A DNA stretch of 64,000 nucleotides from an uncultured bacterium (GCA_963977015.1 CAXBMO010000024.1:31551-95550), one strand, 5' to 3'. Positions 18,252 to 36,064 are shown, counted from the stretch's first letter. Numbers and translations: made by a program. The notes: a model not told the origin generated them from the letters alone.

Positions 18252-18396
18252 CGTCTCAAAAAAAGGGAGTCGGGTGTGGTCGGCAAAAAGAGGGGTGAGG
18301 ATATTTCGCACATGTTAGACATTTTACGAGTGTAAAGTGAGGAAGCGCCGTCAAAAACTCCTTGGCGGAGTCCGCAGAATGGTGAATGGCTCTAAC

Positions 18397-19224: not shown

Positions 19225-20816
19225 AACGTTTCACCAAGGGCGATCTCGACGGGTTTTTCGCACTCGGGTTGGACAACCTGCTGATGCTCATCCTGATGAG
19301 CGGGTTGTGTCTCGGCTTCCCACTCAACTTCGATCCCGACTTATTTTACGGGCGGGTCTTGCCCGGAGCAGCGATTGGCCTGCTGATCGGCAACCTGTTT
19401 TACGCGCGCCAGGCGCTCCGACTCGCCGCTCGCGAAAATCGCAATGACGTCTGCGCCCTCCCCTACGGCATCAATCTGATCACCATTTTCGTCCACGTTT
19501 TCCTGGTGATGTGGCCAGCTCAACAAATCGCAATGAGCCAGGGACTGGAGAAGCCGGAAGCGGATTTGATGGCGTGGAAAGCGGGAATTGTCGCCTGCCT
19601 TGGCTCGGGTTTGATCGAGTTTCTGGGCTCGTTCGTGGTCGATCGCATCCGCAGAATCACCCCGCGCGCCGCCCTTCTCGCCGCGCTGGGGGGAATTGGG
19701 CTCGCGTTCATCGGGATGGATTTCGTGTTTCGAGCCTTCACCTATCCGCTCGTTGGATTCACCACGCTCGCGATCACCCTGATCGCTTATTTTGGCAAAG
19801 TCCGCTTCAAGTTCGGGCTGCCCGCCGGGCTCGTAATTGTCGTCATTGGCTGCGCGATTGCCTGGGCGACGGGAGTCGCACCCGTCGGCGAAGCGCGAGC
19901 CGCTGGAATCTGTCTGCCCGTCCCCAGATTTGGCGCGCTGTTTGGATCTTTGGGGAATTTATGGATCTACGCCCCGGTCATTTTGCCGATGGGAATCCTG
20001 AGTTTGGTGATGTCGCTCCAGAATATCGAATCCGCCGAAGCGGCCGGCGATCGCTACGAACCCAAACCCGCCCTTGCCTTCAACGGGATCGGCTCCATTG
20101 GCGCCGCGCTGTTCGGCTGCCCCTTTCCCACCACCATTTACATCGGCCATCCCGGTTGGAAGTCGCTCGGTGCCCGGGCCGGCTACTCTACTCTCAACGC
20201 AGTCGTCCTCTCCCTGATCTGTTTTACCGGCACCCTCAGTTACATTGTCTACGTCGTGCCGCTCGAAGCCGGTATGGCGATTTTGATCTGGATTGGAGTG
20301 GTGATGGCGGCCCATGCCTTCCAAGCCGTCCCCAAGGAACACGCGCCCGCCGTGGTGATGGGATTCGTTCCCGCCCTTGGTGGTTTTGCTGCGCTCATGC
20401 TCAAAGCCGGGCTCGGTGCCGGCGGTTACGGCATGCCCGACAAGCCATTTGATCCCGAAATCGCGACCGTTCTGGCTCAGACTCGAAACGTCTTTGCCGA
20501 GGGAATTTTCGCGCTCGATCAGGGCTTCGTTTACACCAGCATTCTCTTTGCGGCGACGACCGTGGCCATCATCGAACGGAAGTTCCGCATCGCGGCAGCC
20601 TGGTGTCTGGCGGGCGGATTTCTCGCGGCGATCGGGCTCATTCACGCCCATCAATACACACCGGGAGACGTCGTCGGACGACTGTCGGCCGGGTTTGAAC
20701 TCGATGAATCCGGAAACCTGATGGCGGCCCAGGGCTGGAAGTGGACCTGGGGTTACCTGGTGATGGCCGGCGTCTTTTTCGTGGCGCCCTGGGTCACGGA
20801 GAAAAGCGAGAACTAA
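19221..20816 (+). CDS. NCS2/AzgA-like nucleobase permease
   Basis: [41 protein letters not shown]; many TM helices. Confidence 0.82.
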
Positions 20817-20824: not shown

Positions 20825-21877
20825 CTAGATCTCCAGTTCCAGCTGCTCGCCACCTTCTCCGGAAGTCGCAAACCGGACCCCGGCTCCGATCAATCGAACC
20901 GTCCGCCCGCGACGTCGCTCCCAACCTTCATTCAGGAGGTTCTCGTAAATCTCGGGGAGCACTGAACTTGCCGCACACTCCGCCGTGGTCGTCTGGAAGT
21001 CGTTGAATTTGAGCTTGATGAACGATTTTGCGATCTGGAGATCCTCGATTTTCTCCAAATCGTGGACGAGTTCTTCAAGAAGTGGGTCCAAGGTGCCGCG
21101 ACACTCTTCCAGCGTGGTCAAATCCTGCGAAAACGTGCGCTCATTGCTTAAACTCTTGCGCTCCCGATCCACCCGGACCGGTCGATGGTCTTCGCCCCGG
21201 CAAAGTTGGTAGAGTTCCACCCCAAACTTCCCAAAATCCCGCGTCAGCCGCGACAAATCCCAGGTTTGCAGATCGCCGCAAGTCTTCGCTCCCAACCGCT
21301 CCAGCTTTTCGGCAGTCCGTTTCCCCACTCCCCAGATCTCTCGAACCGGCAAATCGACCATGAAGCCGGCAATCTCACTCTCGCGGACCTCAAATTGCCC
21401 ATTCGGCTTTCGCCAATCGCTCGCGATCTTGGCGAGAAACTTGTTCGGCGCAATCCCGGCGCTCGCCGCCAACCCGGTCGTTTCAAAAATCCGGGCGCGA
21501 ATCTCCGCCGCGACGTTCGCGCCACTTGAACGCAGATGGCTGACATCGAGATAAGCTTCATCGAGGGAAAGCGGCTCAATCGTTGGCGTGAACTGCTCGA
21601 AAATCTGTCGAATCCGGCGCGATTCCTCGCGATAGAGATCAAAACGAACCGGCAAAACGATCAACCGCGGGCAGAGCTGCATCGCCTTGAAGGTCGGCAT
21701 GGCTGATCGGCAGCCGAACTTGCGGGCCTCATAGTTCGCCGTCGTCAACACGCCCCGGTTGGAAGATCGCCCGCCAACCGCGACCGGTTTTCCCACCAGT
21801 TCCGGATTCTCACGCAATTCGATGGCTGCGTAAAAGCAGTCCATGTCGATATGAATGATTTTTCGGGTCTCGGGCAC
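20825..21877 (-). CDS. dinB: DNA polymerase IV
   Basis: IIHIDMDCFYA, ANYEARKFG, SLDEAYLD, NKFLAKIASD..KPNG. Confidence 0.96.
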   Translation of the reverse strand: MPETRKIIHIDMDCFYAAIELRENPELVGKPVAVGGRSSNRGVLTTANYEARKFGCRSAMPTFKAMQLCPRLIVLPVRFDLYREESRRIRQIFEQFTPTIEPLSLDEAYLDVSHLRSSGANVAAEIRARIFETTGLAASAGIAPNKFLAKIASDWRKPNGQFEVRESEIAGFMVDLPVREIWGVGKRTAEKLERLGAKTCGDLQTWDLSRLTRDFGKFGVELYQLCRGEDHRPVRVDRERKSLSNERTFSQDLTTLEECRGTLDPLLEELVHDLEKIEDLQIAKSFIKLKFNDFQTTTAECAASSVLPEIYENLLNEGWERRRGRTVRLIGAGVRFATSGEGGEQLELEI

Positions 21878-22025: not shown

Positions 22026-22529
22026 GTGCAACCTGCAACCGAACCTCCGATCCCCAAATCCACTCCCCCAGAGCTTTCTCCGGTGGAGGTCGAAGTGATC
22101 GATCTGTTCGTCAACGCCGCCAAGCTGCTCGCCCTTCCCAAATCGGTCGCTGAGATCTACGGCCTCCTCTTTATTTCACCGGAGCCCTGCTCGCTTGATG
22201 ATTTGGTCACAAAGTTGCGCATGAGCAAGGGATCCGGCAGCCAGGGCATTCGACTTTTGCGAACGATGGGCGCGATTCAGTCCGTCTACGTTCCCGGGAG
22301 CCGGTGCGATCATTTTGCCGCCGTGACCGAACTCAGGAAACTGGTCTCAGGCTACTTTCGAGGCCAGGTTCAAGAGCATCTCGACAATGGTGATGTCCGG
22401 CTTCAGCGCATTACTGAGGCGGCAAACGAAGATTCTTCCGAATTTTACGAGCAGCGGATTGAGAAATTGGAGCAATGGTATGGTCGAGCCCAAACACTGC
22501 TGCCGATGGCGCAGAAAATCCTGGGTTAA
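22026..22529 (+). CDS. GbsR/MarR-family transcriptional regulator
   Basis: LPKSVAEIYGLLF...P.SLDDL...L.MSKGS.SQG.R.L winged-helix pattern. Start uncertain. Confidence 0.82.
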   Translation: MQPATEPPIPKSTPPELSPVEVEVIDLFVNAAKLLALPKSVAEIYGLLFISPEPCSLDDLVTKLRMSKGSGSQGIRLLRTMGAIQSVYVPGSRCDHFAAVTELRKLVSGYFRGQVQEHLDNGDVRLQRITEAANEDSSEFYEQRIEKLEQWYGRAQTLLPMAQKILG

Positions 22530-22546
22530 CCGCAAGAAATACGACC

Positions 22547-23119
22547 ATGAGTGATCCAGCCCCCTATCAGCCCAAAGAGGAAGACATCCATTGGTATGCG
22601 ATTCATACCAAGGCAAAGAGCGAACATATCGCCACGGCACACCTCAAGCTTCTGGATCCGGAAATGCAGGTTTTCTGCCCGCGGATCCGTTTTCAAAAGA
22701 AGACCAAACGCGGCAAGATCTGGTTCGTCGAAGCCATGTTCCCCGGCTACACCTTTGCCCGCTTCGATCTGGGCGAGTGGCTCCGCGGCGTCAACGCAAC
22801 CACCGCGGTGCTCGGTGTCGTCCGATTTGGAACGGAATACCCGTTTGTGCCCGACGAAGCCGTCGAAGAATGGCGCAACACGGTGGACGACCAGGCAATC
22901 ATCACGGTCGAAGAAAAGCTCGAGGAAGGCGATGAAATCGAAATCATCGAGGGACCGATCATGGGGCTCAAGGCGATCATCACCAAGGTGATGCCGGGCG
23001 CGGAACGCGTAAGTATTTTGATGGATATGCTGGGACAAACTCGAGAAGTCGAGATTTCCCGCGATGCCATCAGCCGCAAGAAAGACATCCGAGTGGCTTC
23101 CACGCCGACTGACGGGTGA
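22547..23119 (+). CDS. NusG paralog, RfaH/UpxY-type antiterminator
   Basis: WYAIHTK, AMFPGYTF (NGN domain) and GDEIEIIEGP..G (KOW domain). Heads a polysaccharide operon. Confidence 0.88.
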   Translation: MSDPAPYQPKEEDIHWYAIHTKAKSEHIATAHLKLLDPEMQVFCPRIRFQKKTKRGKIWFVEAMFPGYTFARFDLGEWLRGVNATTAVLGVVRFGTEYPFVPDEAVEEWRNTVDDQAIITVEEKLEEGDEIEIIEGPIMGLKAIITKVMPGAERVSILMDMLGQTREVEISRDAISRKKDIRVASTPTDG

Positions 23120-23295
23120 TTCTGGTGGAAACAGCCTGAGAGCACGGACTCGTCATGGAGTTCGGCTTTTCGGCACCTGACTGACACCTTTCCAAAAACG
23201 GTTTCGCCAAATCCAATGCGCGATTGACCAGGGGCGGCAGCTTCAGGCAAATTTCAGTTTCCACTTGGCGATTTTCAGGTTCGGTTAGCGCACGA

Positions 23296-24300
23296 ATGAC
23301 TCGAGATCGAATTCATCAACTCCTGACGCAGTTTGAGCAAAAGCGCGTCCTCGTCATCGGCGACATCATGCTGGACCGTTTCTTGTGGGGCAGCGTGACC
23401 CGAATCTCTCCCGAGGCGCCCGTTCCAGTCGTTCATGTGCAACGCGAAGAATTCTATCCGGGAGGCGCAGCGAACGTCGCTCGCAATCTGGCTCCGTTCA
23501 CCAAATTCACCTCCCTGGTTGGAATTGCGGGTGAAGACGAATACGCCAAAACGCTCCAATCCGAACTTTCGAACGGAAACATCGCCAACGATGGAATCCT
23601 CCTCGATCCCAACTTCGAGACGATCGTCAAAACCCGCATTTTCGCGCGACAACAGCAGGTGGTCCGAGTCGATCGCGAACGGCCGGGCGCGCTGACCGAG
23701 GAACAGCAACAAGCCGTTCTCGACTACCTGATGACAAAGGCGGAGCAACTGGACGCCATCATTCTGGAAGACTACGGCAAGGGAATGATGCAACAGCCGC
23801 TTGTTGATCAGATCGTCGAAATCGCTTCCTCAAAGGGAATTCAGGTCACGGCGGACCCGAATCCGAACAACCAGCTCAATTGGAACGGTGTCACGGTATT
23901 GAAACCCAATCGCCTTGAGGCGTTTCGGATGGCGGACACTCCCGAGCCGCCTGCCCATGAGGATCCGCTCCAGGACCAGGCCCTGCTCGATGTCGGGGAA
24001 CAACTCCTTCAAAAATGGGCCGCCAAGATGATTCTGATCACGCTCGGCGAACATGGAATGATGCTTTTTGAACGTGATGCAGCCCCACAACACGTTCCGG
24101 TCCGGGCCCGCGAGGTCTTTGACGTTTCGGGAGCCGGCGACACCGCCATCGCCCTTCTCACTCTGGCCCTGACCGCTGGAGCCACACCGATCGAAGCGGT
24201 CGAAGTCTCCAACTACGCCAGTGGCACCGTGGTCGGCAAACTCGGAACCGCAACCCTCTCACCCGACGAGTTGCGGGATGCGGTTCCCGCTGCTAAGTGA
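23296..24300 (+). CDS. rfaE1: D-glycero-beta-D-manno-heptose-7-phosphate kinase (HldE kinase domain only)
   Basis: GDIMLDRF..G...RISPEAPVPVV, GGAANVA, DVSGAGDT, VVGKLGTA. Confidence 0.92.
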   Translation: MTRDRIHQLLTQFEQKRVLVIGDIMLDRFLWGSVTRISPEAPVPVVHVQREEFYPGGAANVARNLAPFTKFTSLVGIAGEDEYAKTLQSELSNGNIANDGILLDPNFETIVKTRIFARQQQVVRVDRERPGALTEEQQQAVLDYLMTKAEQLDAIILEDYGKGMMQQPLVDQIVEIASSKGIQVTADPNPNNQLNWNGVTVLKPNRLEAFRMADTPEPPAHEDPLQDQALLDVGEQLLQKWAAKMILITLGEHGMMLFERDAAPQHVPVRAREVFDVSGAGDTAIALLTLALTAGATPIEAVEVSNYASGTVVGKLGTATLSPDELRDAVPAAK

Positions 24301-24304
24301 ACCC

Positions 24305-24865
24305 ATGAAGTCGATTTTCGTCGAACGCCTCCAAGAGCATCATGAAGTGATGCGCTCCATCGAATCGCAGGCCGAGTTGTTCGAGGAAATTGCCTCCAAG
24401 ATGGTCGACGCGATCAAGGCCGGCGGAAAAATCTGCTTTATGGGCAACGGCGGCAGCGCGGCGGACTCCCAACACCTGGCGGCGGAGTTGGTCGGTCGCT
24501 TCCAGAAAGAACGAGCCGCGATGCCATCCATCGCCTTCACCACCGACACCTCAATTTTGACCGCCGTCGCGAACGACTACGGCTACGACGCCATTTTCGA
24601 GCGCCAGGTCGAAGGCCTCTGCGGACCGAACGACGTCGTCGTCGGTCTTTCCACCTCTGGCAACAGCCCCAACGTGCTCCGCGGCATCGAAGCGGCCAAA
24701 AAGATGGGAGTTTTCACGATTGGCATGGCAGGAAAGGACGGCGGCAAGCTCAAGGACACTGCGGACCTGACCTTCGTCGTTCCATCGCCCAAAGCCGCCC
24801 GCACCCAGGAAGCCCATATCTTCATTGGGCACACCCTTTGCGAGGTGATCGAGGACAGCCTTTGA
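24305..24865 (+). CDS. gmhA: D-sedoheptulose-7-phosphate isomerase
   Basis: GNGGSAADSQHLAAE, ANDYGY, STSGNS.N, QEAH. Confidence 0.94.
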   Translation: MKSIFVERLQEHHEVMRSIESQAELFEEIASKMVDAIKAGGKICFMGNGGSAADSQHLAAELVGRFQKERAAMPSIAFTTDTSILTAVANDYGYDAIFERQVEGLCGPNDVVVGLSTSGNSPNVLRGIEAAKKMGVFTIGMAGKDGGKLKDTADLTFVVPSPKAARTQEAHIFIGHTLCEVIEDSL

Positions 24866-24920: not shown

Positions 24921-26228
24921 ATGTTCGGCAGAAAAGAGAGTCGAGCCATCCTTTGGCTTGGATTCGAAAAAATGGCGGCTCTAGGCCTCTCGTTTTTGGC
25001 AACGATTGTCGTCGCTCGGCATCTGGGCCCCGCCAACCTGGGCATTTTAGCCAGCGGGCTCGCCATCGTATCCATTCTCTCCCCACTTGCCAGCCTCCTG
25101 ATCGATAAAGCGCTCGTACGACGGTTTTCCAGAGAGCCCGAGCAACGCGACTACTTGCTATTCCTGGCACGTCATATTGTCGTAAGGGCCAGTATTCTGA
25201 CGTTTCTTGTTGGCCTTGTTCTGATCGCAATCTTGTCGACCAGCAGTGACGGAACCAGCGGCCTGCGATTTCTGGTGGGCCTATCCGCCTTGCTCTCTCT
25301 TCTGATCTTTCCTTTTCTGGTCCCGCTCCGGAGTTTCTGTGAATCCATCACCAACGGAAAAATATTGGCGACGTCGAATCTCTCGGGATCGGTTGGAGCG
25401 TCACTATTCCGCCTGGTCATGGTCGCCATCGGCGCGCCCCTGCCTCTCTTCGCGTTCAGCGGAGCCGTTGGCGCGGCCCTTTCCGCAGGAGTACTTCGGG
25501 CGCACTTCGGCCGAATCGGCAAATGGTTCCTCCCCGATTTCAAGGCCGCGCGACGTGAAAAAACGTTCCTTGCCGAAGGCAGCATTCTCGCCTTCGCGGC
25601 GCTGACAAACCTGATTCATCGCAATGTCGACATCATCATGGTCGAGCGCCTGGCCAACTCGACCGAAGCCGGCAACTACGCAGCCTCGGCACGCCTGGCC
25701 GAGATCACCTATCTGATCCCCGTAATCCTGGCGACTGTCTATTTACCGCTATTGTCCCGTAGCCGGGATAATGCCTCCAGCTTTCATAACTCGACGCTGA
25801 ACTTCTTTCGACTGAACACCCTTTTCGCCCTGGTAATCACTATGGCCGGCCTTCTTTGTGGGAAACCGATCATCGATCTGCTCTATGGCAGCCAATTCAG
25901 CATGGTCGGAACGATCTTCCTGATTCATATCGCAAGCATCTGGTTCATCTTTATCGACCACGCGAAAGGAACCGTTCTAACGTCCAACCGGGGAAACCCC
26001 GTGGTCATCTGGTGCAACGCCATTGCAATCACGGTCAACGTTGGTCTCAACTTCCTCCTGATTCCCAAATACGGCGGAATCGGAGCGGCTTCCGCAACCT
26101 TTGTATCCTATTCTCTGATTGGAGCGATCCTCCCCTTTCTTTTCGCCGAAACCCGCAAGCTTGCAAGAATGCAGATCAGGGCACTGATTTCTCCGATTCA
26201 AGTCCTCGGGCAGCTTCGGTCCAGCTAA
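24921..26228 (+). CDS. Wzx-type oligosaccharide flippase
   Basis: ARHLGP...G near the N-terminus, D..M......AGNY, LNFLLIPKYG.IGAA.AT; about 12 TM helices. Confidence 0.85.
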   Translation: MFGRKESRAILWLGFEKMAALGLSFLATIVVARHLGPANLGILASGLAIVSILSPLASLLIDKALVRRFSREPEQRDYLLFLARHIVVRASILTFLVGLVLIAILSTSSDGTSGLRFLVGLSALLSLLIFPFLVPLRSFCESITNGKILATSNLSGSVGASLFRLVMVAIGAPLPLFAFSGAVGAALSAGVLRAHFGRIGKWFLPDFKAARREKTFLAEGSILAFAALTNLIHRNVDIIMVERLANSTEAGNYAASARLAEITYLIPVILATVYLPLLSRSRDNASSFHNSTLNFFRLNTLFALVITMAGLLCGKPIIDLLYGSQFSMVGTIFLIHIASIWFIFIDHAKGTVLTSNRGNPVVIWCNAIAITVNVGLNFLLIPKYGGIGAASATFVSYSLIGAILPFLFAETRKLARMQIRALISPIQVLGQLRSS

Positions 26229-26370: not shown

Positions 26371-27473
26371 ATGAATACCACCCTTTCTATTCGGCTGGAA
26401 CTGCTGAGAATCGGCGCGGCGCTGACCGTATTCTGGCCCATTTTTCCTATCTCGGCTACAGCGGCCCCGGCTCGGGATTTATGCGGAACTACGGTCACGA
26501 TGCGGTCATCATTTTCTTTGTCCTTTCCGGATACGTCATCGCCTACGTGTCGGATCGCCGGCACGGCAATTTCAGGAGCTATTTCTCCGCACGATTGTCG
26601 CGCCTTCTCTCAGTCATGCTGCCGGTGATGCTGCTGACGATTCTGCTCGATGCAACCGGTTCCAGATTGGATTCCTACGTCTACGGCACCGTGCCGACTG
26701 ACCGGCCAGTCCAAAGAATTGCGTCCAACTTGTTCTTTCTATCGCAATCATTCGGCCACAACCTGAAGTTTTTCTCCAACGGCCCGATGTGGTCCCTCTC
26801 TTATGAGTTCTGGTACTACGCGATCTTCGGCCTTTGGGTCTATCTTCCAAAAGGCAAAGCCAGATTTTTTGGAGTAGCCGCAGCAGCCTGCATCGCCGGC
26901 ACCAAAATTCTCCTTCTGTTTCCGATCTGGTTGCTCGGAGTCGCCGCCTATCACTTGCACCAGCAGAAAAACCTCCGATTCCACGGGTCCGTCACCATTT
27001 TGGCCTGGAGTTGCATCGCCATTCTGCTCCTGGCCCTCAATCAAGTTCCCGGCTTACTTTCGATTCAACAATCTCTCTCCCTGAACGATGGGCTGGGATT
27101 TTCAAAATACCTCTATACCGACTATCTCACGGGTTTGGCGGTTTTTGCAGGAGTCGTCATGTTAAACCCCAGGAGTTCCAAATTGGTCAGCGACAACCTG
27201 AAGGCGAACATCCGAAAAATCGCCGGAGCAACCTTTCCCCTGTATCTCCTTCATGTCCCGCTTATCCTTTTCATTGCGAGTATCACGCCCCAACTGAGTT
27301 CTCACCCCCTACTCGCAACGATCTCGGCATTTGTTACGATTTACGTTTGTTATCGCATCACCCCACTGACTGAGGCTATCAACCGCATTTTTCGAGGCTG
27401 GTTCACAGGATTCTCCGCAGGGCTAATGGAACCACCCGAGTTGCAGCCTCAACCCCCTAACCATGGTCCGTAG
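26371..27473 (+). pseudogene. Acyltransferase-3 (OafA-like O-acyltransferase) with a 1-nt frameshift near 26434
   Basis: The N-terminal LELLRIGAALTVF is in one frame. The expected continuation AHFSY...GHDAVIIFFVLSGY...WSLSYEFWYY is in another frame. Confidence 0.8.
27383..27422 (+). repeat. Imperfect direct repeat, copy 2 (within the 3' end of the acyltransferase)
   Basis: ccgcatttttcgaggctggttcacaggattctccgcaggg; see copy 1. Confidence 0.7.
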
Positions 27474-29760
27474 CATGAAGTCGGCATTAGCATCGCTCTA
27501 CTCTCTGGCCCTGGCGGCTCCGCGCGATAAGCCGCTACTGCCGCGCGTCATTCAGTTTCCGGTCAACGACATCTGCAATTCCAAGTGCCAGATGTGCGAG
27601 ATCTGGAAGCAGAAGAAGTCGGAAGAAGTATCTCCCGACGCGCTCCGAAGCATTCTAACCCAACCCCTGTTCCGCGAAGTGCGTGGAATCGGTTTCAACG
27701 GCGGCGAGCCAACCCTTCGCCCCGACTTGCCGGAATTGATCGAAGCTGCCGCGGACACGCTCCCCAAGCTGGGCGGCGTCTCCCTGATTACGAACGCGAT
27801 TCGGGCACCGCACGTCATTCGGAACATCGACGCCATCGGAAGCCTTCTCAAGAATCGCGGCATTCACCTTGACGTGATGGTGTCCCTGGACGGAGTCGGT
27901 GATGTGCATGACCGAGTGCGCGGGCGGGCAGGAAATTTCGCCAGCGCGGTGCAGGTTCTCGAACACCTGCGCGACCGCCAACCCGCCGACAGTTTCCGAA
28001 TCGGTTGCACGATTATTCGGGAAAACGTGCTTCAGGTGGAGGAAGTGTTGAACTGGGCTCAGGACTTCGGTGTTTACGCCCGTTTCCGGGTCGGAATTCC
28101 TCACCAGCGTCTTTATACCGCGGAGAAGGTCGATCCGTTTGCGCTGACTCAGGGCGAGCGGTTTCACCTCGCAAACTTTCTCCAGACTCTCGAGCAATCC
28201 TACGAAACAAATCTGCTGCGCAGGCACTTTTATCACAGTCTGCGTCGTCAGGTCGCCTATGGGGAGAATCGCACCGCGGGCTGCGATTGGAAGGACCGCG
28301 GAGTCACCCTGTTCGCGTCCGGCGACATCGGATACTGCGCCGTCAAGAGTCGCAACATTGCTTCCCCGCTTCGCGGTGATGACGCCCTCGCGGCCTACCA
28401 TGCCAACGTCGATCATCTTCGTGAGATCCGCGACAACCATTGTGCAACCTGTCACCATGATTACGAGGGAATTCCGAATCGCGCATTCTTTATCAAATCC
28501 AGGCTGAAACAGAGCAAGGACAAGATTCCAGCTCCTTTGCGATCGCGGGCGCAGAGTTGGAAGGCGGAATATCACGAACAGCGTTCCAAGCGTCGCCTGC
28601 GGCGTCTTTCCAAGCCAGCATCGCCGATTCAACCACATCGAATCCCGAACTCCGATCCTCACATCCTCCTTTGCGGCTGGTATGGAACCGAGACGCTCGG
28701 CGACCGGGCCATCCTGGCCGGTGTCATCACCGCCATTCGCGAGGCCAATCCATCCAGCAGGATCACGATTGCGTCTCTGGAGCCCTACGTGACCGAGCAA
28801 ACCCAGCGGTTGATGCCGGAACTTGAAGGCAGCTCGATCATTTCCTATCCCGAGGCCCTCACGAATCTGAAATCGTCCGGATTTGATTCCGTGCTGATGG
28901 CCGGCGGCCCACTAATGTCTCCGGTGAATGAGTGTCTGGATATCCTGGAACTGTTCCATGCCGCCAAATCCAAGGGCATCCCGACCGGACTCTTCGGGGG
29001 CGGGGTGGGGCCGCTCCAATCCGGATGGCGATCCGAGATGATCGCGGCGATCATCCGCAACAGCGACCACCTTTCGTTTCGCGATTCCCGTTCCCTGGAT
29101 CTGTCCAGAAAACTGACCGGCGCGGACCTTGACGCCAGCGTCATCCCTGACCCATCCCGCTACTGGCTGCGGCGCCATCACGAAGCGCTCAAACGGATCG
29201 AACGCGACCCAAAACGCATCCTTTTTGGCCTGCGCGACTGGCATCCCCAGGTTTATGCCAATGAGTTGAGCGAATCCGAGGGCCAAGCCATCAAGGACAC
29301 CTTCGAAGCAGAGATCAAGACCTACACCCGGGAAAAACTCGCCTCCGGCTATACCATCATTCCGTTCTGTATGCACAAGCAACCGGTGGGCGGAGACGAC
29401 CGGTTCTATTATCAACGGCTTTTTCAGGACGAACCTGAAATTCTCCGGCACCTGGACTGGCAACATCGCCCTCCCGGCGACGACTTTGCCGAGTTTCATC
29501 GGGCGTCCTTTGCCCTCACGATGCGATTTCATTCCACGGTCTTTGCCCTCGAGGCAGAGATTCCCTTTCTGGCGATCGACTACACTCGGGGCGGGAAAGT
29601 TGGCGCGCTCTGCGAAGAAAGCGGATTGGCCGACCAATGCCTTCCGATCGACCAGATCACTGCCGATTCGCTTCAAAACCCGGTTCCTGATTCAGCACCT
29701 CGGAATCCGGATTTGAGTTCCCTTACCGCCTTTGCCGAACATTGCCTTCAATCTCACTAA
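27463..29760 (+). CDS. Radical SAM/SPASM-like domain fused to a polysaccharide pyruvyl transferase domain
   Basis: CNSKCQMC, GGEP, SLDG and extra Cys (AGC, GYC, CATC) in the N-half. GWYG...LGD.AIL, AGG, FRD..S, MRFH (CsaB/WcaK-like) in the C-half. Confidence 0.85.
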   Translation: MVRSMKSALASLYSLALAAPRDKPLLPRVIQFPVNDICNSKCQMCEIWKQKKSEEVSPDALRSILTQPLFREVRGIGFNGGEPTLRPDLPELIEAAADTLPKLGGVSLITNAIRAPHVIRNIDAIGSLLKNRGIHLDVMVSLDGVGDVHDRVRGRAGNFASAVQVLEHLRDRQPADSFRIGCTIIRENVLQVEEVLNWAQDFGVYARFRVGIPHQRLYTAEKVDPFALTQGERFHLANFLQTLEQSYETNLLRRHFYHSLRRQVAYGENRTAGCDWKDRGVTLFASGDIGYCAVKSRNIASPLRGDDALAAYHANVDHLREIRDNHCATCHHDYEGIPNRAFFIKSRLKQSKDKIPAPLRSRAQSWKAEYHEQRSKRRLRRLSKPASPIQPHRIPNSDPHILLCGWYGTETLGDRAILAGVITAIREANPSSRITIASLEPYVTEQTQRLMPELEGSSIISYPEALTNLKSSGFDSVLMAGGPLMSPVNECLDILELFHAAKSKGIPTGLFGGGVGPLQSGWRSEMIAAIIRNSDHLSFRDSRSLDLSRKLTGADLDASVIPDPSRYWLRRHHEALKRIERDPKRILFGLRDWHPQVYANELSESEGQAIKDTFEAEIKTYTREKLASGYTIIPFCMHKQPVGGDDRFYYQRLFQDEPEILRHLDWQHRPPGDDFAEFHRASFALTMRFHSTVFALEAEIPFLAIDYTRGGKVGALCEESGLADQCLPIDQITADSLQNPVPDSAPRNPDLSSLTAFAEHCLQSH

Positions 29761-29778
29761 CTACCTACCACTCCTGCC

Positions 29779-30555
29779 ATGCTTGACTCGAATACCCTGT
29801 TGGACCTCGCCGAAGCGAACCGGGAATCGTTCCGCTCCGCCGAACCTTTTCCCCATGTCGTGATCGACAACTTCCTGCCGCTGGATCTTGCCGAGGAAAT
29901 TCACGATCTGTTCCCTTCCTTCGAGGAAGCGGACCCTCGAACTTATCAGCGCGAGGAAAACAAGATTGCGACTCGCCCGGACGTTCCGACCTGCCCCGAG
30001 CGACTTCGGCAAATCATGTATGCGCTCAATTCTCACGAGATCATTACCCCCCTGGAGGTGATGACCGGGATCAACGGCCTGTTGCCCGATCCGCACTTTT
30101 TTGGCGCCGGACTGCAGCAAACCGGGCCGGGCGGAAAGCTCGGCATTCACGTCGATTTCAACAAGCACAAACACCTGCGACTCGACCGCCGGCTCAACCT
30201 GCTGATCTATTTCAACAAAGACTGGAAAGAAGAATGGGGCGGACATTTCGAGCTTTGGGACAAGGACATGACCGCCTGCCAAAAGAAGATCCTGCCGATC
30301 TTCAACCGGATGGTGGTTTTCGCCACAACCGACGAATCCTATCACGGTCTGCCGGATCCGATTCAATGCCCCGAAGGTGAATCCCGGAAATCGCTCATTC
30401 TGTTCTTTTATTCCAACGGGCGGGAAGACGGAGCGGCGGAAGTCGGCTGGACCCAGCACCAGAAACGTCCCAACGCCCACGATTACAAGTTTGTCGAAAA
30501 AGGCCCCTTTCGGCGAAGCATCAACAAGGTCGGACTGATGCTCTCCAATATCTGA
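29779..30555 (+). CDS. 2OG-Fe(II) oxygenase (prolyl-hydroxylase-like)
   Basis: PFPHVVIDNFL, IHVDFN (HxD), SYHG and a distal RKS motif. Confidence 0.88.
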   Translation: MLDSNTLLDLAEANRESFRSAEPFPHVVIDNFLPLDLAEEIHDLFPSFEEADPRTYQREENKIATRPDVPTCPERLRQIMYALNSHEIITPLEVMTGINGLLPDPHFFGAGLQQTGPGGKLGIHVDFNKHKHLRLDRRLNLLIYFNKDWKEEWGGHFELWDKDMTACQKKILPIFNRMVVFATTDESYHGLPDPIQCPEGESRKSLILFFYSNGREDGAAEVGWTQHQKRPNAHDYKFVEKGPFRRSINKVGLMLSNI

Positions 30556-30564
30556 TCTCCAATC

Positions 30565-31383
30565 ATGAACACCGAAGACTACATCGCCCAGCTTAAGAAG
30601 AACGGCTTCGTGGTGATTTCCAAGGTCATCGCGGAAGACCGGCTTCTGGCCCTGCGAAACCTGACCGATCGCATCATGGCCTACGCCGATCGTGGCCTGG
30701 AGGATCCCTTCGCGCCCTACTATCTTCCGCATCGGAGCGACCAAGGCGTCCTCTATGACCTGTTCCACCGGCATCCGGAGTTCCAGGAAGCAGCCAGGCT
30801 CCCCCAAATGCTGGACGTTCTCGAAGGCGTTCTCGGCCCGAACATCTTTCTCTATGAGAACAGCCTGGTTTCCAAGCCCAAAGGCCGCTCCAACGGAGTC
30901 CCGTGGCATCAGGACTTCATGTCACGACCTGACGAGCCGAAAAAGTACATTACCTGGATCGCGCTCGACGATGTCCGCGTGGAGAACGGAGCTCTCCGGG
31001 TGATCCCCGGTTCGCACCTGAACGGCTACGTTCCGTATCACGTCGTTCCCGGCGAAACCCACCACACCCGGGCCAACCCCGACACAGTCGACGAGTCACA
31101 AGCGGTCCATGTGGAAATGGACGCTGGTTCCGGATTCATCTTCGACTGTCAGATTCTTCACGGCAGCGATGAGGTTCACGCCGATTCCCCGCGCCGGGCT
31201 TTCCGGGTTTCCTACCAGGGTTTCGAACAGATCTACACTCCACGGGCCACTCCAATCGTGGTCCGCGGCGGAGATCCTGAAGACTTGGGACGACTCTTCC
31301 CCAATAAGCCTATCGCACCAAGAAAACGGTCAGCTACGATCAGAGCCCTCAACAAGATCGGTAGAGTCTTGGCGCGGGTTTAG
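30565..31383 (+). CDS. Phytanoyl-CoA dioxygenase (PhyH) family protein
   Basis: PWHQD, WIALDD....NGAL.VIPGSH, HGS, RR motifs. Confidence 0.88.
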   Translation: MNTEDYIAQLKKNGFVVISKVIAEDRLLALRNLTDRIMAYADRGLEDPFAPYYLPHRSDQGVLYDLFHRHPEFQEAARLPQMLDVLEGVLGPNIFLYENSLVSKPKGRSNGVPWHQDFMSRPDEPKKYITWIALDDVRVENGALRVIPGSHLNGYVPYHVVPGETHHTRANPDTVDESQAVHVEMDAGSGFIFDCQILHGSDEVHADSPRRAFRVSYQGFEQIYTPRATPIVVRGGDPEDLGRLFPNKPIAPRKRSATIRALNKIGRVLARV

Positions 31384-31399: not shown

Positions 31400-32680
31400 A
31401 TGAGAGCTCTGCACATTAACTTCAGCGACACCCAAGGTGGAGCCTCAGTCGCCGCGTGGAGAACACACCGCGCGTTGCGAGAAATTGGAGTCGATTCGTT
31501 GATGGCAGTTCTCGATAAACAATCTTCGAGTGAACATGTTTATCCGCTGCTCCAATCCCGCTCACATCAAAGATGGAGTACGTTTCAGGATAAAGCGGAG
31601 CGGGGCCTTGCCAAAGCCTTGGGGCTGAGAGGAAAGGCCGCGTGTGGTCGCCACGGGGGCTGGATCCCCTCGCTCACGGCGGAGCGAATCAATAGTTTTG
31701 AGGCAGACATCGTTCACCTTCATTGGATCAACCACGGCGTGATCAGTGTTCCAGAACTCCTTCAAATCCAGGCTCCCATCGTTTGGACACTTCACGACAT
31801 GTGGCCATTTAGTTGTGGTTACAACTACCTTGGCTCGTTTCAAAATGATCCAATCGGACTGTCTCAATACCAACAGTCGTTTTTTGGCAGCCTTAACCTC
31901 AGGCTCAAACGGCAATCCATCCACCGAAAGGACATTCGATTCATTGCACCTTCCCAGTGGATCGCGTCAGAACTCTTGGAATCAGAACTAGCCCCGTCAT
32001 CCAATATTTCTATCATTCCCAACGGCCTCGACGTCGACCAGTTCTCTTGTCATCCAAACAAGAAAGAGCAATTCCGCAATGAGCTAGGCCTCCCAACTGG
32101 CCGCAAGCTAATCCTGGCAGGAGCGGTCGGGCTCAACGCAGATCGAAGAAAAGGCTTCGACCTCCTATTGCAGTCTCTCAACGTGATTCAAAATTCGACC
32201 GCATTTTCGACAAAACCCGCGTTGGTTGTCTTTGGGAACGACGAGTCGATACATAAGTTCGATTTCAGTGGAATCGATGTTTTTGCCCTGGGCAAAATCT
32301 CAAATGAAGAAGACCTAATCAAACTCTATAACGGTTGCGATTGTTTCGCCCTCCCGTCACGGGAAGACAACTTGCCCAACGTGATTCTGGAAAGTTTTGC
32401 CTGCGGACTTCCATGCGTTGGATTTCGAGTCGGAGGGGTTCAGGAGATGATCAAGCATCGCGTGAACGGCTACCTTGCATCCCCCTTCGATCCCGAAGAG
32501 TTTGCAAATGGCATCATCGAAGCCATGAACGCCACCGGATGGAAACCGGCAGCCAGACAAGAGGCTCTCCTCAAGTATTCTGACACCAATCACGCCAACC
32601 AAGTCTCCGAACTCTACCGTTCGATCGCGGCCACGCCTCGCAATCGTTTTCCGAAACGTCAACTCTTGAAAGCTGCGTAG
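31400..32680 (+). CDS. Glycosyltransferase family 4 (WcaC-like)
   Basis: GGA..AA, IVHLHW, WTLHDMW, RKG, DNLPNVILES.ACG.P. Confidence 0.9.
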   Translation: MRALHINFSDTQGGASVAAWRTHRALREIGVDSLMAVLDKQSSSEHVYPLLQSRSHQRWSTFQDKAERGLAKALGLRGKAACGRHGGWIPSLTAERINSFEADIVHLHWINHGVISVPELLQIQAPIVWTLHDMWPFSCGYNYLGSFQNDPIGLSQYQQSFFGSLNLRLKRQSIHRKDIRFIAPSQWIASELLESELAPSSNISIIPNGLDVDQFSCHPNKKEQFRNELGLPTGRKLILAGAVGLNADRRKGFDLLLQSLNVIQNSTAFSTKPALVVFGNDESIHKFDFSGIDVFALGKISNEEDLIKLYNGCDCFALPSREDNLPNVILESFACGLPCVGFRVGGVQEMIKHRVNGYLASPFDPEEFANGIIEAMNATGWKPAARQEALLKYSDTNHANQVSELYRSIAATPRNRFPKRQLLKAA

Positions 32681-32685: not shown

Positions 32686-33504
32686 ATGCAACGCCCGAAG
32701 TTCTCCATTATTTCTCCGACTCTCGAAGGCTTTGATTACCTCGAACGCCATTTGAATTCCGTACGTTCACAAGGCCTGCCAGCACACGAAGTTGAGCATT
32801 GGATTATTGACGGTGGATCCAAGGATGGAAGCCGAGCCTATCTGACGGCACAACGAGACATTCGCTTTGTATCCGAGCCTGACCGCGGCCTCTCCCACGC
32901 GGTCAACAAAGGAATTGAACGGGCTACCGGGGATTGGATCATCTGGCTAAACGTCGATGATCAACTTGCTCCGAATTCTCTGCAATCCTTCCTGGATCAC
33001 GTCAAAGAGGATGAAGCGTCCGAAATCGTTTGCGGCGCTCAAGAAGTCCGCGACTACGAAGGTAATACGGTCGAAATTTCTCCCCCTTGGAAATATACGG
33101 CAAGCCAGCTCCTCAAAACGCGAACGGCAATTATCCAAGCTTCGACGTTCGTTCACCGCTCCGTTTACGAATCCGTGGGAGGCATGGATGAGTCATACAA
33201 ATTCGCCATGGATTATGAATGGATGGTTCGAGCTTCCCTACAGTTCAAATGCCGAACCATTCCCTCTGTTCTGACCATCTATAACCGAAGAAAAGGTTCC
33301 ATTACGGACGTTGGAACCGCCAAACAACACCGCGAGTTTCTTCGAGTCCGGCGTAAGTATAAGTGCTCTTTCCTCGAAACGATGGAGTGGAAATTGCGAT
33401 TCTACCTTGCCACTGAGCCACTACGTAAAGTTCGATGGTTCCGACGTTTTGTTCAACTCCTCAAGCAGTATCCTTCGAGTGCCTGCCACGCAACAAAGGC
33501 CTGA
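32686..33504 (+). CDS. Glycosyltransferase family 2
   Basis: FSIISP, IIDGGSKDGS, SEPDRG...AVNKG, LNVDD, MDYE. Confidence 0.9.
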   Translation: MQRPKFSIISPTLEGFDYLERHLNSVRSQGLPAHEVEHWIIDGGSKDGSRAYLTAQRDIRFVSEPDRGLSHAVNKGIERATGDWIIWLNVDDQLAPNSLQSFLDHVKEDEASEIVCGAQEVRDYEGNTVEISPPWKYTASQLLKTRTAIIQASTFVHRSVYESVGGMDESYKFAMDYEWMVRASLQFKCRTIPSVLTIYNRRKGSITDVGTAKQHREFLRVRRKYKCSFLETMEWKLRFYLATEPLRKVRWFRRFVQLLKQYPSSACHATKA

Positions 33505-33514
33505 ACCGCCTTCC

Positions 33515-34582
33515 TTGGAAATCCTTCACATCCTTTGCGGAAACAGCCTCAAAGGTGGAGCTGAAACCGTAGTCAGGGAGATGATGCAACTGTCCTTACC
33601 TGGTTGCCGACAAAGGCTGTGGATGCACCGAGGCTTCTCCGGTCCAGATCAAATGACCGTCAATGGAGGAGTCGCTCAATACGCCAATCTCTCGATTTTC
33701 CATGACCTCTGGCATGGAGTTCGGGAAGCCATTGCCCTCACTCGCTGGATTGGAGGACAAAGAGATTTCGTTCTTCATGCTCATTCAAGAGTTGGGATCA
33801 TCGCCGCTTCCATTGCCGGCAGAATACTCGGACTTCCAGTTATCCATCATTGCCATACTTTGCCAGCACACTTGTGGATTTACGATGCGCTGCTTCGCCT
33901 GTGCCGCGGAACGCGTATCTTTAACTCAGGAAAAACTCGGTCACATTTTAAGAATTTACCATCCGGTGGAATTACCGTCATGCCAGGGGTTAACCATTGG
34001 CCCTCACCAGCCCCTCGGAATTCTGGTTCAGTCTCCCGATTTGTTGCATCAGGATCTTTCACGCAAGGAAAACACCTTCTCGAATTGATCGATGCATTTC
34101 TAATCTTCAGCAAGAACCGCGACGATACGGAACTGCACCTTTACGGCTCAAAGGAAGACGATGAGAACGCCTACGAGAAAATGGTGCTGCAATCATCCAA
34201 ACAGAGTTCTGCGATCAAGATCCACCCTTGGACAGAAGAATGGGCAGCAGAACTTCGCTTCAATGATATCTTCGTTCATCTTGGCAACCCAGAGTCGTTT
34301 GGCATTGTTATATTGGAAGCATTTGCCCGCGGACTTCGACTGGTTGTTCTCCCTGATACCTTCCTCGAAGAAATCGCGTGCTCGAGCCTTCCCGACGGGA
34401 TCACCACGATCGGGTCTACCGATCCAAACGAAATCTGCAAAGGCCTCAAACGCTCATTCGCCATTTCACCAGACACAGGCTGGTATGATCGCCGGCTCCA
34501 ATACGCCCCTCTTTTTGGTGCCGCAGGCAAAAGAGAATCTCTCCAACACCTCTATCTGACGATTCAACAGACATCAATATGA
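33515..34582 (+). CDS. Glycosyltransferase family 4
   Basis: GGAE, LHAHS, ESFGIVILEA. Start taken at TTG 33515. Confidence 0.8.
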   Translation: MEILHILCGNSLKGGAETVVREMMQLSLPGCRQRLWMHRGFSGPDQMTVNGGVAQYANLSIFHDLWHGVREAIALTRWIGGQRDFVLHAHSRVGIIAASIAGRILGLPVIHHCHTLPAHLWIYDALLRLCRGTRIFNSGKTRSHFKNLPSGGITVMPGVNHWPSPAPRNSGSVSRFVASGSFTQGKHLLELIDAFLIFSKNRDDTELHLYGSKEDDENAYEKMVLQSSKQSSAIKIHPWTEEWAAELRFNDIFVHLGNPESFGIVILEAFARGLRLVVLPDTFLEEIACSSLPDGITTIGSTDPNEICKGLKRSFAISPDTGWYDRRLQYAPLFGAAGKRESLQHLYLTIQQTSI

Positions 34583-35664
34583 AGGTATCCGTCTACTTAG
34601 CCGACCAGAACCCCCAGCGAGACCGCAGTGTCGGAATCTCCAAAATGACCGATTGCCTCCTTCACGGGCTGTCACAGCATTCTGCGATTGAGCTCAACGC
34701 CTTGGTCTCCAAGTCCTCGGTCCGCGCCCCCGAAGGAATTCCTGAGAGAACCCTTCCATGGCGAACGGATCAGGCACTCGCACGGTTGATCACCGATCAT
34801 TTCCACGCTCTCTCCAACGAAGATGCTGATATTTTTTACTATCCCAAAGGTTTCGTTGGACTTGTCGCCCCCCCGTTTGGGAAGACTGTGGTGACGATTC
34901 ACGATACGATTATTCAGCACTACTCAGACCATTATCCCGATTCAAGATCTTCTCTCGATTTTCAATATTGGATCGGACTGATGAAACACACGCTTCGTGT
35001 TGCCGACCTGGTCCTCACGGTTTCCCAGAATTCGAAGCTTCAGATCCTCAAGTTCTGTAGCCGCCACCACATTTCTCCACCTCAGATCAATGTGACCTAT
35101 GAGGCCTCGTCCTACGAGAACTGGAAGCCCGATCATCTCAAAGCAAAGAGTGACTATGTTGTTCTGCTCGCGTCAAAAGAGCCTCACAAAAGAACCATTG
35201 AGACGATCCAGTTTTGGAAGCGGTATGATCAACGCCTCCCTGAGCTTCGAATCATCGGTTCCCTTTCCGAGGAGGCCGAACAACTCCTTGAGTCGGCAAA
35301 TCATATTACGCAGCATCCATTTCTTCCAGAAGCCCTGTTTGTGGAGCAAATCAGCAATGCCGGCGCACTCTTTTTCCCTTCGGAAATAGAAGGGTTCGGA
35401 CTTCCTGCGATTGAATCCTACTTCCTCGGCACCCCCTGTTGTGTCGGTACCGAAACGGCAATGGACGAAGTACTGAAGGTTGCGACTTCCAAGGGGCGAT
35501 TCGATCTCAACGACGATGCCAGCGCCCTTCACGCACTCGAGGAAACATTAAGCATGTCTCCCCAGGAAGTTGAAGAGATCGGGGACAATCTCAAAGAAAC
35601 CTATTCCGCCGAAAATTTTGCGAAATCAGTCGCATCCGCCTTCGAATGCGCCCTGGCGAACTAG
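34579..35664 (+). CDS. Glycosyltransferase family 4
   Basis: VVTIHD, LTVS..SK, EPHK, FPS..EGFGLP.IE. Confidence 0.85.
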   Translation: MKVSVYLADQNPQRDRSVGISKMTDCLLHGLSQHSAIELNALVSKSSVRAPEGIPERTLPWRTDQALARLITDHFHALSNEDADIFYYPKGFVGLVAPPFGKTVVTIHDTIIQHYSDHYPDSRSSLDFQYWIGLMKHTLRVADLVLTVSQNSKLQILKFCSRHHISPPQINVTYEASSYENWKPDHLKAKSDYVVLLASKEPHKRTIETIQFWKRYDQRLPELRIIGSLSEEAEQLLESANHITQHPFLPEALFVEQISNAGALFFPSEIEGFGLPAIESYFLGTPCCVGTETAMDEVLKVATSKGRFDLNDDASALHALEETLSMSPQEVEEIGDNLKETYSAENFAKSVASAFECALAN

Positions 35665-35704
35665 AATTCCCGAATCCGAAATCCATCTCCAAATTTTGCC
35701 GAAC

Positions 35705-35729
35705 GCCCGCTTGCCCAAGCGGGCTTTTT
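35705..35729 (+). terminator. Intrinsic terminator closing the polysaccharide operon
   Basis: GCCCGCTT-gccc-AAGCGGGC 8-bp stem followed by TTTTT. Confidence 0.7.
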
Positions 35730-35746
35730 CGTGCTCTCTGATAGCG

Positions 35747-36064
35747 ATGATCACCCCAGAGAACATTCAGTGTGTCGGAGATGTCGTTGCGATTCGATGG
35801 TCGGATGAAACCGAAGACTATTTCCCGATGGAGAGGCTCAGAGCGTTCTCGCCAAGTGCCGAACAGCAAGGAGAACGAGATCTCTTGGGTCGCCAATATG
35901 GAGGAACCGACCAGGCAAACTTTCCCGGTGTGGTCGTAACCAGTTGGCAACCGGTCGGCGGATACGCCCTGCAGTTCTTTTTCAGCGATGGTCACCAAAC
36001 GGGAATTTACTCCTTCGATTACCTCAAGAAAATCGCTGAAGCGCTCCGTCAACAGGAGTCCTGA
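35747..36064 (+). CDS. DUF971 (GBBH N-terminal-like) protein
   Basis: I.WSD, LR..SPSAE, VGGYALQ..FSDGH.TGIYS..YL. Confidence 0.85.
   Translation: MITPENIQCVGDVVAIRWSDETEDYFPMERLRAFSPSAEQQGERDLLGRQYGGTDQANFPGVVVTSWQPVGGYALQFFFSDGHQTGIYSFDYLKKIAEALRQQES

Follow-up and report, generated by a model that had tools for sequence, protein, structure and literature searches.

This work concerns a 64,000-nucleotide stretch of DNA from an uncultured bacterium (GCA_963977015.1 CAXBMO010000024.1:31551-95550; the whole stretch is called the window below) and, within it, a gene at 27463..29760 on the plus strand, whose product of 765 amino acids (aa) joins a radical S-adenosylmethionine (SAM) domain of the twitch type, by way of a basic linker, to a polysaccharide pyruvyl-transferase domain of the Pfam family PF04230. 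This is a genuine, conserved fusion, and the family behind it is real, widespread and readily testable. The reading we prefer, at a probability of about 0.8, is that of a bifunctional, doubly active glycan-tailoring enzyme that would work with a GT4 glycosyltransferase before the glycan is flipped.

The initial annotation described the gene as one uninterrupted open reading frame (ORF) with a CxxxCxxC motif at about 27574-27597, four further cysteines of the auxiliary iron-sulfur type, a basic linker and a CsaB/WcaK-like domain from about 28660, and this observation is confirmed in every detail. Translation gives 765 codons without a stop (an alternative start at 27475 gives 761 aa, P0002), and Pfam finds in the protein both Radical_SAM (PF04055; residues 34-198, E 2.2e-15, 57.6 bits against a cut-off of 29.5) and PS_pyruv_trans (PF04230; residues 412-707, E 1.4e-23, 84.6 bits against 25.3, profile positions 2-278 of 280), matches that are far beyond chance. 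The predicted radical SAM [4Fe-4S] site, C38-x3-C42-x2-C45, sits exactly at 27574..27597 (plus strand, like all features below unless stated otherwise). Downstream of it lie G80-G81-E82 (27700..27708), located by an alignment of 81 family members and which we take to be the putative SAM-binding ‘GGE’ motif, and a twitch-like site, C274-x12-G287-x4-C292 ... C327-x2-C330 (28282..28452), seen in translation and alignment and predicted to hold an auxiliary cluster. The SPASM/twitch motif, CX9-15GX4C plus further cysteines, binds auxiliary [4Fe-4S] cluster(s), and we take the C-x12-G-x4-C...CxxC arrangement found here, with its four auxiliary cysteines, to be the twitch pattern, since four such cysteines serve one cluster; the Pfam SPASM model PF13186 has no match on the protein at E<=0.01. 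The linker (residues 336-400, 28468..28662) is poorly conserved and, by charge count, basic, with 17 K/R against 4 D/E and a net charge of +13. Its positive charge is a family trait, the median net charge being +8 and at least +5 in 68 of 81 members. The transferase half begins at about residue 400, and its PF04230 domain, placed by Pfam, the alignment and the ESM Atlas model, occupies residues 401-720 (28663..29622), with R688-F-H690 ... G711-K712 (29524..29598) as putative residues for binding phosphoenolpyruvate (PEP).

The architecture is not rare and not peculiar to this genome, being filed under generic automatic names in hundreds of clusters. A word-index protein search returned 704 proteins at E<=1e-3 among 8000 scored candidates, and the best listed homologues, the window's own protein among them, range in length from 708 to 816 aa (708-816) and align over 88-98% of the query at 39-47% identity; 119 of the best 120 carry both PF04230 and PF04055. 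Under the names ‘polysaccharide pyruvyl transferase family protein’ or ‘radical SAM protein’, the databases thus hold a family that can be delimited by the presence of both domains in a single polypeptide of some 720-820 aa that aligns over its full length, a description that fits the window protein. An exhaustive search of 1.84 billion representatives (clusters at 50% identity) gave 8103 matches at E<=1e-3, a number that falls to 1665 with a threshold of 1e-10 and to 364 with one of 1e-30; among the 150 best, most align in a single stretch over approximately residues 20-735 that covers both halves. An identical protein in the ESM Atlas belongs to a cluster with 339 members, 99% of them having Radical_SAM and 98% PS_pyruv_trans. 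Scanning public genome contigs yielded 62 related loci (labelled L001 and so on), which serve for the neighbourhood counts below. Their hosts include Opitutaceae and other Verrucomicrobiota, Bdellovibrionota, Rhodothermota, Bacteroidota, Chloroflexota, Actinomycetota, Thermodesulfobacteriota, Mycoplasmatota, Cyanobacteriota (Microcystis, Richelia, Mastigocoleus) and many Pseudomonadota (Yersinia alsatica, Lelliottia, Aeromonas, Shewanella, Novosphingobium, Hydrogenophaga). Within the window's own lineage the gene is sporadic: it is single-copy in its genome, and a search at E<=1e-20 through 60 relatives, comprising 3 from its genus, 33 from its family and 24 from its order, found it in none. 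The same genome has a second, stand-alone PF04230 gene (G000:C4:169505-170425, 66.1 bits, open frame 436 aa). The Lelliottia fusion gene has no DNA match among 5,426 Escherichia coli genomes, and a plasmid search gave partial mftC-type matches only.

A gene of this kind might also be an artefact, two neighbouring genes having been joined by misassembly or read-through, in favor of which one could cite a single natural split (L059, below) and stand-alone radical SAM proteins of 370-400 aa and 42-57% identity, found on long contigs (up to 85 kb; short matches may be contig-end cuts). The initial annotation had named homologues that are always split as the sign of such an artefact, and what we see is the opposite, with 119 of the 120 best matches fused, as are 49 of 60 rows from genomes of many phyla. 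Moreover, a marine-metagenome contig (run X2) spans 28333-28730, linker included, with 0 differences and 0 gaps, and a relative 95-99% alike over 27585-29589, from run X5 of another study, crosses the junction with 36 substitutions and no indel. Of these substitutions 25 are synonymous and 26 fall at third codon positions, which indicates a coding frame across the whole fusion. The 11 amino-acid changes of this relative are mostly conservative (e.g., N131D, V316I, L685I). Among the sequencing runs listed as carrying the sequence none is of RNA, a negative that has no bearing on expression. The artefact is thereby already refuted, and we leave it next to no probability. A metagenome scan with one of the stand-alone radical SAM proteins (P0259) found two distant loci only, one of them being another fusion.

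Conservation extends to both halves. In an alignment of 81 full-length family members (A1, to which all residue counts refer), the cysteine triad C38/C42/C45 is conserved in 78-79 of 81 and E82 of the GGE in all 81, G80 and G81 in at least 90%; of the auxiliary site, C274, C327 and C330 are found in 81/81, C292 and G287 in at least 90%. On the transferase side G408, E410, G413, D414, G481-G482-P483, R540, R591, G643, D646, R688, H690, Y707 and K712 are each present in 81/81. Judging from this alignment, every expected catalytic motif of both halves is under selection.

The C half shares its Pfam domain with the PF04230 ketal-pyruvyltransferases CsaB (Paenibacillus alvei), WcaK (E. coli), Pvg1p (S. 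pombe) and WbbZ (Klebsiella O1b), all of which are without the fusion's 340-residue N-terminal radical SAM/twitch domain and basic linker; to our knowledge, the pyruvyl-transferase enzymes known so far are single-domain. WcaK aligns end to end with it (fusion residues 401-753, E 6e-12), yet at 21% identity only, and the NCBIfam equivalog model for CsaB, TIGR03609, gives 84.9 bits where its cut-off is 213.1. By these scores the C half would be a PF04230 member and not a CsaB orthologue. According to PMC10435577, CsaB activity is abolished by R207D and H308A/R, and the PEP site is lined by R148, H308 and K328 of CsaB and likewise by H339 of Pvg1p. In the fusion, the spacing of R540, R591, H690 and K712 fits this CsaB PEP-site set, and these four residues are invariant, together with R688, in 81/81. 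A pairing of the C half with the PDB places ‘mRfHs...GK’ of the family profile over ‘DRLHA...GK’ of Pvg1p (5ax7), and since this weak alignment reaches only E 1.3, the correspondence with an Arg/His/Lys set that is backed by mutagenesis in CsaB and Pvg1p is treated as inferred. As for the fold, residues 397-765 of the ESM Atlas model of the fusion protein (predicted template modelling score, pTM, 0.79; predicted local distance difference test, pLDDT, 0.84) superpose on a CsaB cluster with a template modelling score (TM) of 0.81 by that row over 338 residues, which predicts a two-Rossmann-type pyruvyl-transferase fold. The initial annotation had allowed for a C half of some other fold; the PF04230 match above cut-off and this superposition both point away from it. 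Cys404 was considered as a MurA-like catalytic cysteine and rejected, as it is not conserved (C in 22/81, T in 25/81).

A pyruvyl-transferase fold could nevertheless have been recruited to another job, be it the transfer of a different group or the binding and presentation of a lipid-linked glycan. The family leaves room for it, its known members being only about 14-28% identical (as given in PMC10435577 and PMC10629545), the CsaB equivalog score lying below cut-off and solved pyruvyl transferases giving no significant match. However, the putative counterparts of the CsaB/Pvg1p PEP-site residues are invariant in all 81 members and persist even in relatives that lost their radical motifs, which is more than a mere binding module needs, and the gene order around the fusion is that of wzxC-wcaK-wcaL (see below). 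We regard this alternative as improbable.

The N half is harder to assign to a named function. Against solved structures, its family profile matches SkfB (1.3e-19), BlsE (6.4e-14), MoaA (5e-11) and anSME (6.3e-08), with which it has in common the CxxxCxxC, the GGE and a cysteine-rich C-terminal extension (BtrN being a further enzyme of this kind), and from which it differs in not being orthologous, in lacking a PF13186 match and in being joined to a glycan transferase. NCBIfam radical SAM models (PTO1314 family, N-twitch family, MftC and others) stay far below their cut-offs, the best with 68.4 against 306. No peptide substrate gene is evident at the fusion locus. Twitch/SPASM auxiliary clusters usually take an electron in a net oxidation or support a rearrangement (BtrN, anSME); BlsE and BtrN act on sugars or cyclitols, BlsE being a sugar-acid decarboxylase. 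Given the anSME match and the two sulfatase genes in the window (36119-37825 and 46264-48084), and since the Joint Genome Institute (JGI) names several homologues ‘sulfatase maturation enzyme AslB’, one might think of an anSME/AslB-type maturase serving these sulfatases. Such a role would find no place for a fusion to a glycan enzyme and to a GT4, and a sulfatase homologue is found in 0 of the 62 related loci. In addition, a two-cluster SPASM domain has seven to eight auxiliary cysteines, whereas the fusion has four and no PF13186 match, which makes a maturase hardly credible.

There are also distant relatives of the N half that occur without a pyruvyl transferase. L060:783-1790 and L061:7959-8969 are stand-alone radical SAM/SPASM genes, each lying between GT4 genes, whose products (335-336 aa) share about 29% identity with the N-half core and match PF13186; in L061 a priming sugar transferase is seen further downstream. 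In the ESM Atlas, the superposition of residues 20-345 with clusters of stand-alone radical SAM(/SPASM) proteins reaches TM 0.93 by query, and the neighbours include a cluster of radical SAM-GT4 fusions (808 aa, TM 0.81 by query). Such architectures, with a radical SAM domain joined to or lying beside a GT4/GT2 glycosyltransferase and uncharacterised as well, resemble in their GT4 association the long forms of the fusion (radical SAM-pyruvyl transferase-GT4) and differ in being without a pyruvyl-transferase domain and in matching the full SPASM model. Radical SAM enzymes thus appear, from these gene contexts, to occur more widely in polysaccharide loci, as a feature that has gone unstudied, and relatives lying between GT4 genes with no pyruvyl transferase point to the sugar, and not the pyruvyl group, as the radical target.

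The two halves are also predicted to form one body. Co-folding of residues 20-345 with residues 398-745, each with its family alignment, gave an interaction prediction score from aligned errors (ipSAE) of 0.83 (runs 0.84, 0.83, 0.78), against 0.00 for the best of three controls; the runs share at least 92% of contacts, with partner pLDDT of at least 85. Of 157 solved complexes, 116 attain this ipSAE mark, as do 2 of 215 mismatched pairs; these counts are rough and to be read with the custom alignment used here in mind. In the model, residues 190-201, 230-246 and 265-266 of the N half contact residues 440-449, 639-655 and 666-668 of the C half. The N-half side belongs to the segment of residues 186-266 (28018..28260) predicted to pack on the transferase half, which is the sole piece of the N half still conserved in degenerate relatives, as would fit the docking model.

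These degenerate relatives emerged when 60 transferase-domain rows from 61 loci were sorted into variant classes: 49 are intact fusions, one is a true split, two are N-terminally shortened ORFs (L014 and L051, which may be pseudogenes or sequencing errors), one (L058) is cut by a contig end, and seven are degenerate. The split, L059, comes from a Mollicutes metagenome-assembled genome, where a 384-aa radical SAM gene (6526-7680, TAA) is followed by a 383-aa transferase gene (7701-8852) in a different frame, with a GAGGGGG motif (ribosome-binding site) and a TTG start within 20 nucleotides (nt) at the junction; all motifs are found in both genes. The seven degenerate forms are L052:7776-9704, L053:7779-9671, L054:7989-9824, the tandem copies L055:7908-9713 and 9772-11619, L062:7776-9695 and L056:7908-10109. 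They are 600-733 aa long and have lost all seven cysteines and the GGE while keeping every invariant transferase residue. Their identity to the window protein is 0-22% over residues 20-150 and 5-18% in the twitch region, as against 40-41% in the transferase half and 26-40% over residues 186-270, where F234, H235, A237 and N238 are retained. L053 also carries a second fragment of 298 aa. On a quick maximum-likelihood tree of transferase domains, rooted with a distant outgroup, six of these rows form one clade next to the intact Opitutaceae forms (Shimodaira-Hasegawa-like approximate likelihood-ratio test, SH-aLRT, 98) and L056 is nested in the cyanobacterial clade (SH-aLRT 99), two positions that fit at least two secondary losses of the radical motifs; the window's own row sits on a long branch with no supported placement.

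Having kept all their transferase residues, the degenerate relatives suggest that the transferase half can stand alone, and this raises the thought that the radical SAM half might be non-catalytic throughout, a structural or redox-sensing iron-sulfur appendage of an ordinary pyruvyl transferase. That the N half survives only as a scaffold in seven relatives, and that the predicted interface uses its outer barrel helices, would agree with this. Yet the cysteine triad, the GGE and the four auxiliary cysteines are kept in the window protein and in 78-79 of 81 relatives, and retention of SAM-binding residues is not expected of a mere scaffold, for which reason we give the appendage only a slim chance. 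Variation occurs in the other direction too: a GT4 domain stands behind the transferase domain in 7 of 15 long relatives (P0175, P0191, P0198, P0200, P0205, P0215, P0217), and some add TPR, methyltransferase and GT2 modules, reaching up to 3783 aa (P0198). These giant relatives look like the all-in-one enzymes of O-polysaccharide pathways that depend on ATP-binding cassette (ABC) transporters.

The same association with glycosyltransferases is repeated in the genetic neighbourhood, for which the ORFs of the 62 public loci and the window were clustered into families. The GT4 partner of the fusion (family 1 of the clustering; in the window at 31400..32680, identified by Pfam, with ATG 31400 picked by orthologue N-termini) is present in 49 loci, is the next same-strand gene after the fusion in 44 of the 58 loci with a downstream ORF, and lies within two genes after it in 46 of 58. 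The Wzx-type flippase family (Polysacc_synt; 24921..26228 in the window by Pfam) is found in 35 loci, directly before the fusion in 18 of 56 and up to three genes upstream in 33 of 56, and the GT2 family (32686-33504, Pfam) also in 35. This arrangement of flippase, pyruvyl transferase and GT4 is also found, as wzxC-wcaK-wcaL, in the colanic acid locus of E. coli K-12, the WcaK of which is without a radical SAM domain. The idea that the window's GT4 is an orthologue of WcaL, and its Wzx one of WzxC, was considered and dropped, the similarity being generic and at family level only. Enterobacterial, Aeromonas and Shewanella loci add genes of the gmd/fcl type, NUDIX and ManC, whilst the degenerate Verrucomicrobial loci (L052-L055 and L062) have a Wzt-type ABC transporter with a Wzt_C domain. 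For chain-terminal pyruvate in ABC-transporter pathways there is a precedent in WbbZ of Klebsiella O1b (PMC10629545). Within the window, the start of the fusion gene overlaps the stop of the gene before it, and the gene after it begins 19 nt past its stop, which places the fusion inside an operon-like block.

From the domains, the motifs and their conservation, the gene linkage and the predicted docking, we infer the following substrates, membrane face and chemistry. The fusion enzyme would tailor a Wzx-dependent surface polysaccharide, both halves being catalytically competent, and would do so on the cytoplasmic side of the membrane, where its target within the lipid-linked repeat unit would be the sugar added by the co-inherited GT4 or a position adjacent to it. 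Its C half would use PEP to place a pyruvate ketal, or an enolpyruvyl precursor of it, on that sugar, whereas the N half would use its [4Fe-4S] cluster and SAM to generate a 5′-deoxyadenosyl radical for hydrogen-atom abstraction, with the second, four-cysteine cluster handling the electron. At about even odds, the radical target would be the sugar itself and not the pyruvyl, in an oxidation, decarboxylation or epimerisation like those of BtrN, anSME or BlsE, the radical step thus making or altering the residue that is pyruvylated. A PhyH hydroxylase would add a step in the window and in 9-10 related loci, and an Acyl_transf_3 acyltransferase would do so in 5 loci. We lean slightly towards the radical step acting on a sugar residue, because of the radical SAM genes between GT4 genes in L060 and L061 and of the radical SAM-GT4 fusions in the Atlas; that BlsE and anSME, after SkfB, are among the closest solved enzymes by profile speaks for it as well.

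What keeps the opposite assignment alive is the specific fusion partner and the rigid predicted docking. Here the transferase would make an enolpyruvyl ether or a pyruvate ketal, and the radical half would then modify the three-carbon unit, by hydrogen abstraction with subsequent C-C bond formation, by oxidative decarboxylation or by MqnE-like addition of 5′-deoxyadenosyl, giving a pyruvate-derived substituent so far undescribed. In hundreds of clusters the radical SAM domain is joined to a pyruvyl transferase and to no other tailoring enzyme, the split form keeps both genes adjacent, and the predicted docking contacts both subdomains of the transferase (residues 440-449 and 639-668). The nearest named families (MftC, BlsE, AhbC/D, NirJ), all far below cut-offs, are often decarboxylases or enzymes of carboxylated side chains. 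A working model exists in MqnE, the aminofutalosine synthase of the futalosine pathway, in which a 5′-deoxyadenosyl radical adds to an enol ether; we know of no other case of radical SAM chemistry on an enolpyruvyl ether. MqnE falls, however, into another radical SAM subfamily, has a small molecule as its substrate, is without a transferase domain, and showed no sequence relation to the fusion protein in any search made. Its substrate is 3-enolpyruvyl-benzoate (PMC9672406). Set against chemistry on the pyruvyl group are the relatives without radical motifs, which keep all transferase residues, and the distant radical SAM relatives that occur with GT4 genes in the absence of a pyruvyl transferase (L060, L061 and the Atlas rows); a term search of the glycan-pyruvylation review, moreover, found no modified pyruvate ketal. 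On balance this assignment seems to us rather unlikely, and considerably more serious than the alternatives dismissed above.

Returning to the bifunctional glycan-tailoring enzyme, several points weigh against it. With all NCBIfam scores far below cut-offs, no specific function transfers by orthology. A sequence search of the C half against the PDB (with a single sequence and with two profiles) gave no significant pyruvyl-transferase match, its fold coming from the ESM Atlas model, and the docking score is the model's own confidence, obtained on a custom alignment. The exclusive fusion to a pyruvyl transferase is explained just as well by a radical step on the pyruvyl group. Neither a biochemically characterised member nor a polysaccharide structure linked to the family was found in print. 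Finally, the seven degenerate relatives presumably work without radical chemistry, so that coupling of the two activities is not obligatory. The proposal of coupled radical modification and transfer, made together with the first description of the gene, therefore stands in part only: the predicted docking and the adjacent split genes suggest it, and the seven relatives devoid of radical motifs speak against its being obligatory.

The same proposal extended to the two neighbouring dioxygenases, and here as well one part held and the other did not. Both genes are real: a 2OG-FeII_Oxy_3 oxygenase (29779..30555) and a PhyH-family Fe(II)/2-oxoglutarate (2OG) dioxygenase (30565..31383), both identified by Pfam. 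PhyH recurs directly beside the fusion: clustering places it there in 9 loci, and tblastn finds it in 10 of 62. Its identity to the window copy is 49-55% (33% in L044), which is above the identity of the fusion itself, and its H115-x-D117, H199 and R210 are invariant, pointing to the hydroxylase type. The 2OG-FeII_Oxy_3 gene recurs in none of the 62 loci, and neither do the sulfatase, PfkB, SIS and NusG-like genes of the window (each 0/62). Upstream of the fusion, the gene of a membrane O-acyltransferase (Acyl_transf_3, 26481..27473, Pfam; its stop is the one overlapped by the fusion start) belongs to a family found in 5 loci (the window, L012, L019, L027 and L049), all with PhyH, which suggests that PhyH and Acyl_transf_3 make up a hydroxylate-then-acylate sub-module riding with the fusion. 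A 382-aa ORF on the minus strand (29761-30909), antisense to both dioxygenase genes, has no family match; it is most likely spurious, the opposing dioxygenase genes being supported by Pfam.

The same-strand block to which these genes belong is headed by a NusG-like protein of 214 aa (22475-23119), which we liken to antiterminators of the RfaH/UpxY type and which may be a locus-specific antiterminator. After it come a PfkB sugar kinase (23224-24300) and an SIS_2 isomerase (24221-24865), and behind the GT2 gene two GT4-type genes (33311-34582, start uncertain, and 34579-35664), all on the plus strand and identified by Pfam. Acquisition of the region as a horizontally transferred island was considered on grounds of composition and rejected, guanine-cytosine content being 0.50-0.60 with no sharp break. 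Upstream of the block are an N6_N4 DNA methylase (18337-19224), a 531-aa ORF without a Pfam match (19221-20816) and, just before the block and on the other strand, a DinB-type polymerase (20825-21877). Downstream, a small ORF of the GBBH-like_N family (35570-36064) precedes the first of the two sulfatases, and further on there are a PIN-PhoH fusion protein (40315-41850, minus strand), a 561-aa ORF without a Pfam match (43491-45176, plus strand) and a protein with Planctomycete-type PSD/PSCyt domains (50108-52684). The GBBH-like_N ORF, the two sulfatases and this last protein hint at a marine member of the PVC group as the source.

The initial annotation knew of no characterised enzyme combining the two activities, and we too found none in the literature searched, which lies outside most subscription journals; the same literature yielded no characterised radical SAM enzyme in Wzx- or ABC-dependent polysaccharide assembly. 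In the 2019 glycan-pyruvylation review, the terms ‘radical’, ‘iron-sulfur’, ‘fused’ and ‘F420’ have 0 occurrences each (a term search only). Pyruvate ketals are major determinants of charge and recognition in capsules, O antigens, exopolysaccharides and S-layer anchors, whilst radical SAM enzymes are familiar from antibiotics, cofactors and peptides. Hundreds of clusters joining both domains, often with a glycosyltransferase in addition, imply a recurrent glycan modification that was missed or not linked to its genes, and this large, widespread and unstudied family probably makes a sugar decoration not yet described. More tentatively, and with no more than a possible outcome in mind, the decoration could be an uncatalogued one, derived from or dependent on pyruvate and made by radical chemistry on the lipid-linked repeat unit. 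If this were true, one might picture a pyruvyl unit that is C-C-bridged, decarboxylated or otherwise rearranged, or a sugar oxidised by the radical and then fixed by a ketal; such a decoration would occur on the surface polysaccharides of bacteria in at least 10 phyla, including enterobacteria, Aeromonas, Shewanella and bloom-forming cyanobacteria, and in the window's sub-lineage the PhyH hydroxylase and the membrane acyltransferase would elaborate it further. The family comes with its own natural controls: beside the intact fusions there are a split pair, lineages in which only the radical motifs are gone, and culturable hosts such as Solimonas soli DSM 21787, Azohydromonas lata NBRC 102462, Plasticicumulans acidivorans DSM 23606 and Roseibacillus persicicus. 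This makes the question directly testable by genetics together with nuclear magnetic resonance and mass spectrometry, and the answer would help to interpret O-antigen and capsule loci across many genomes.

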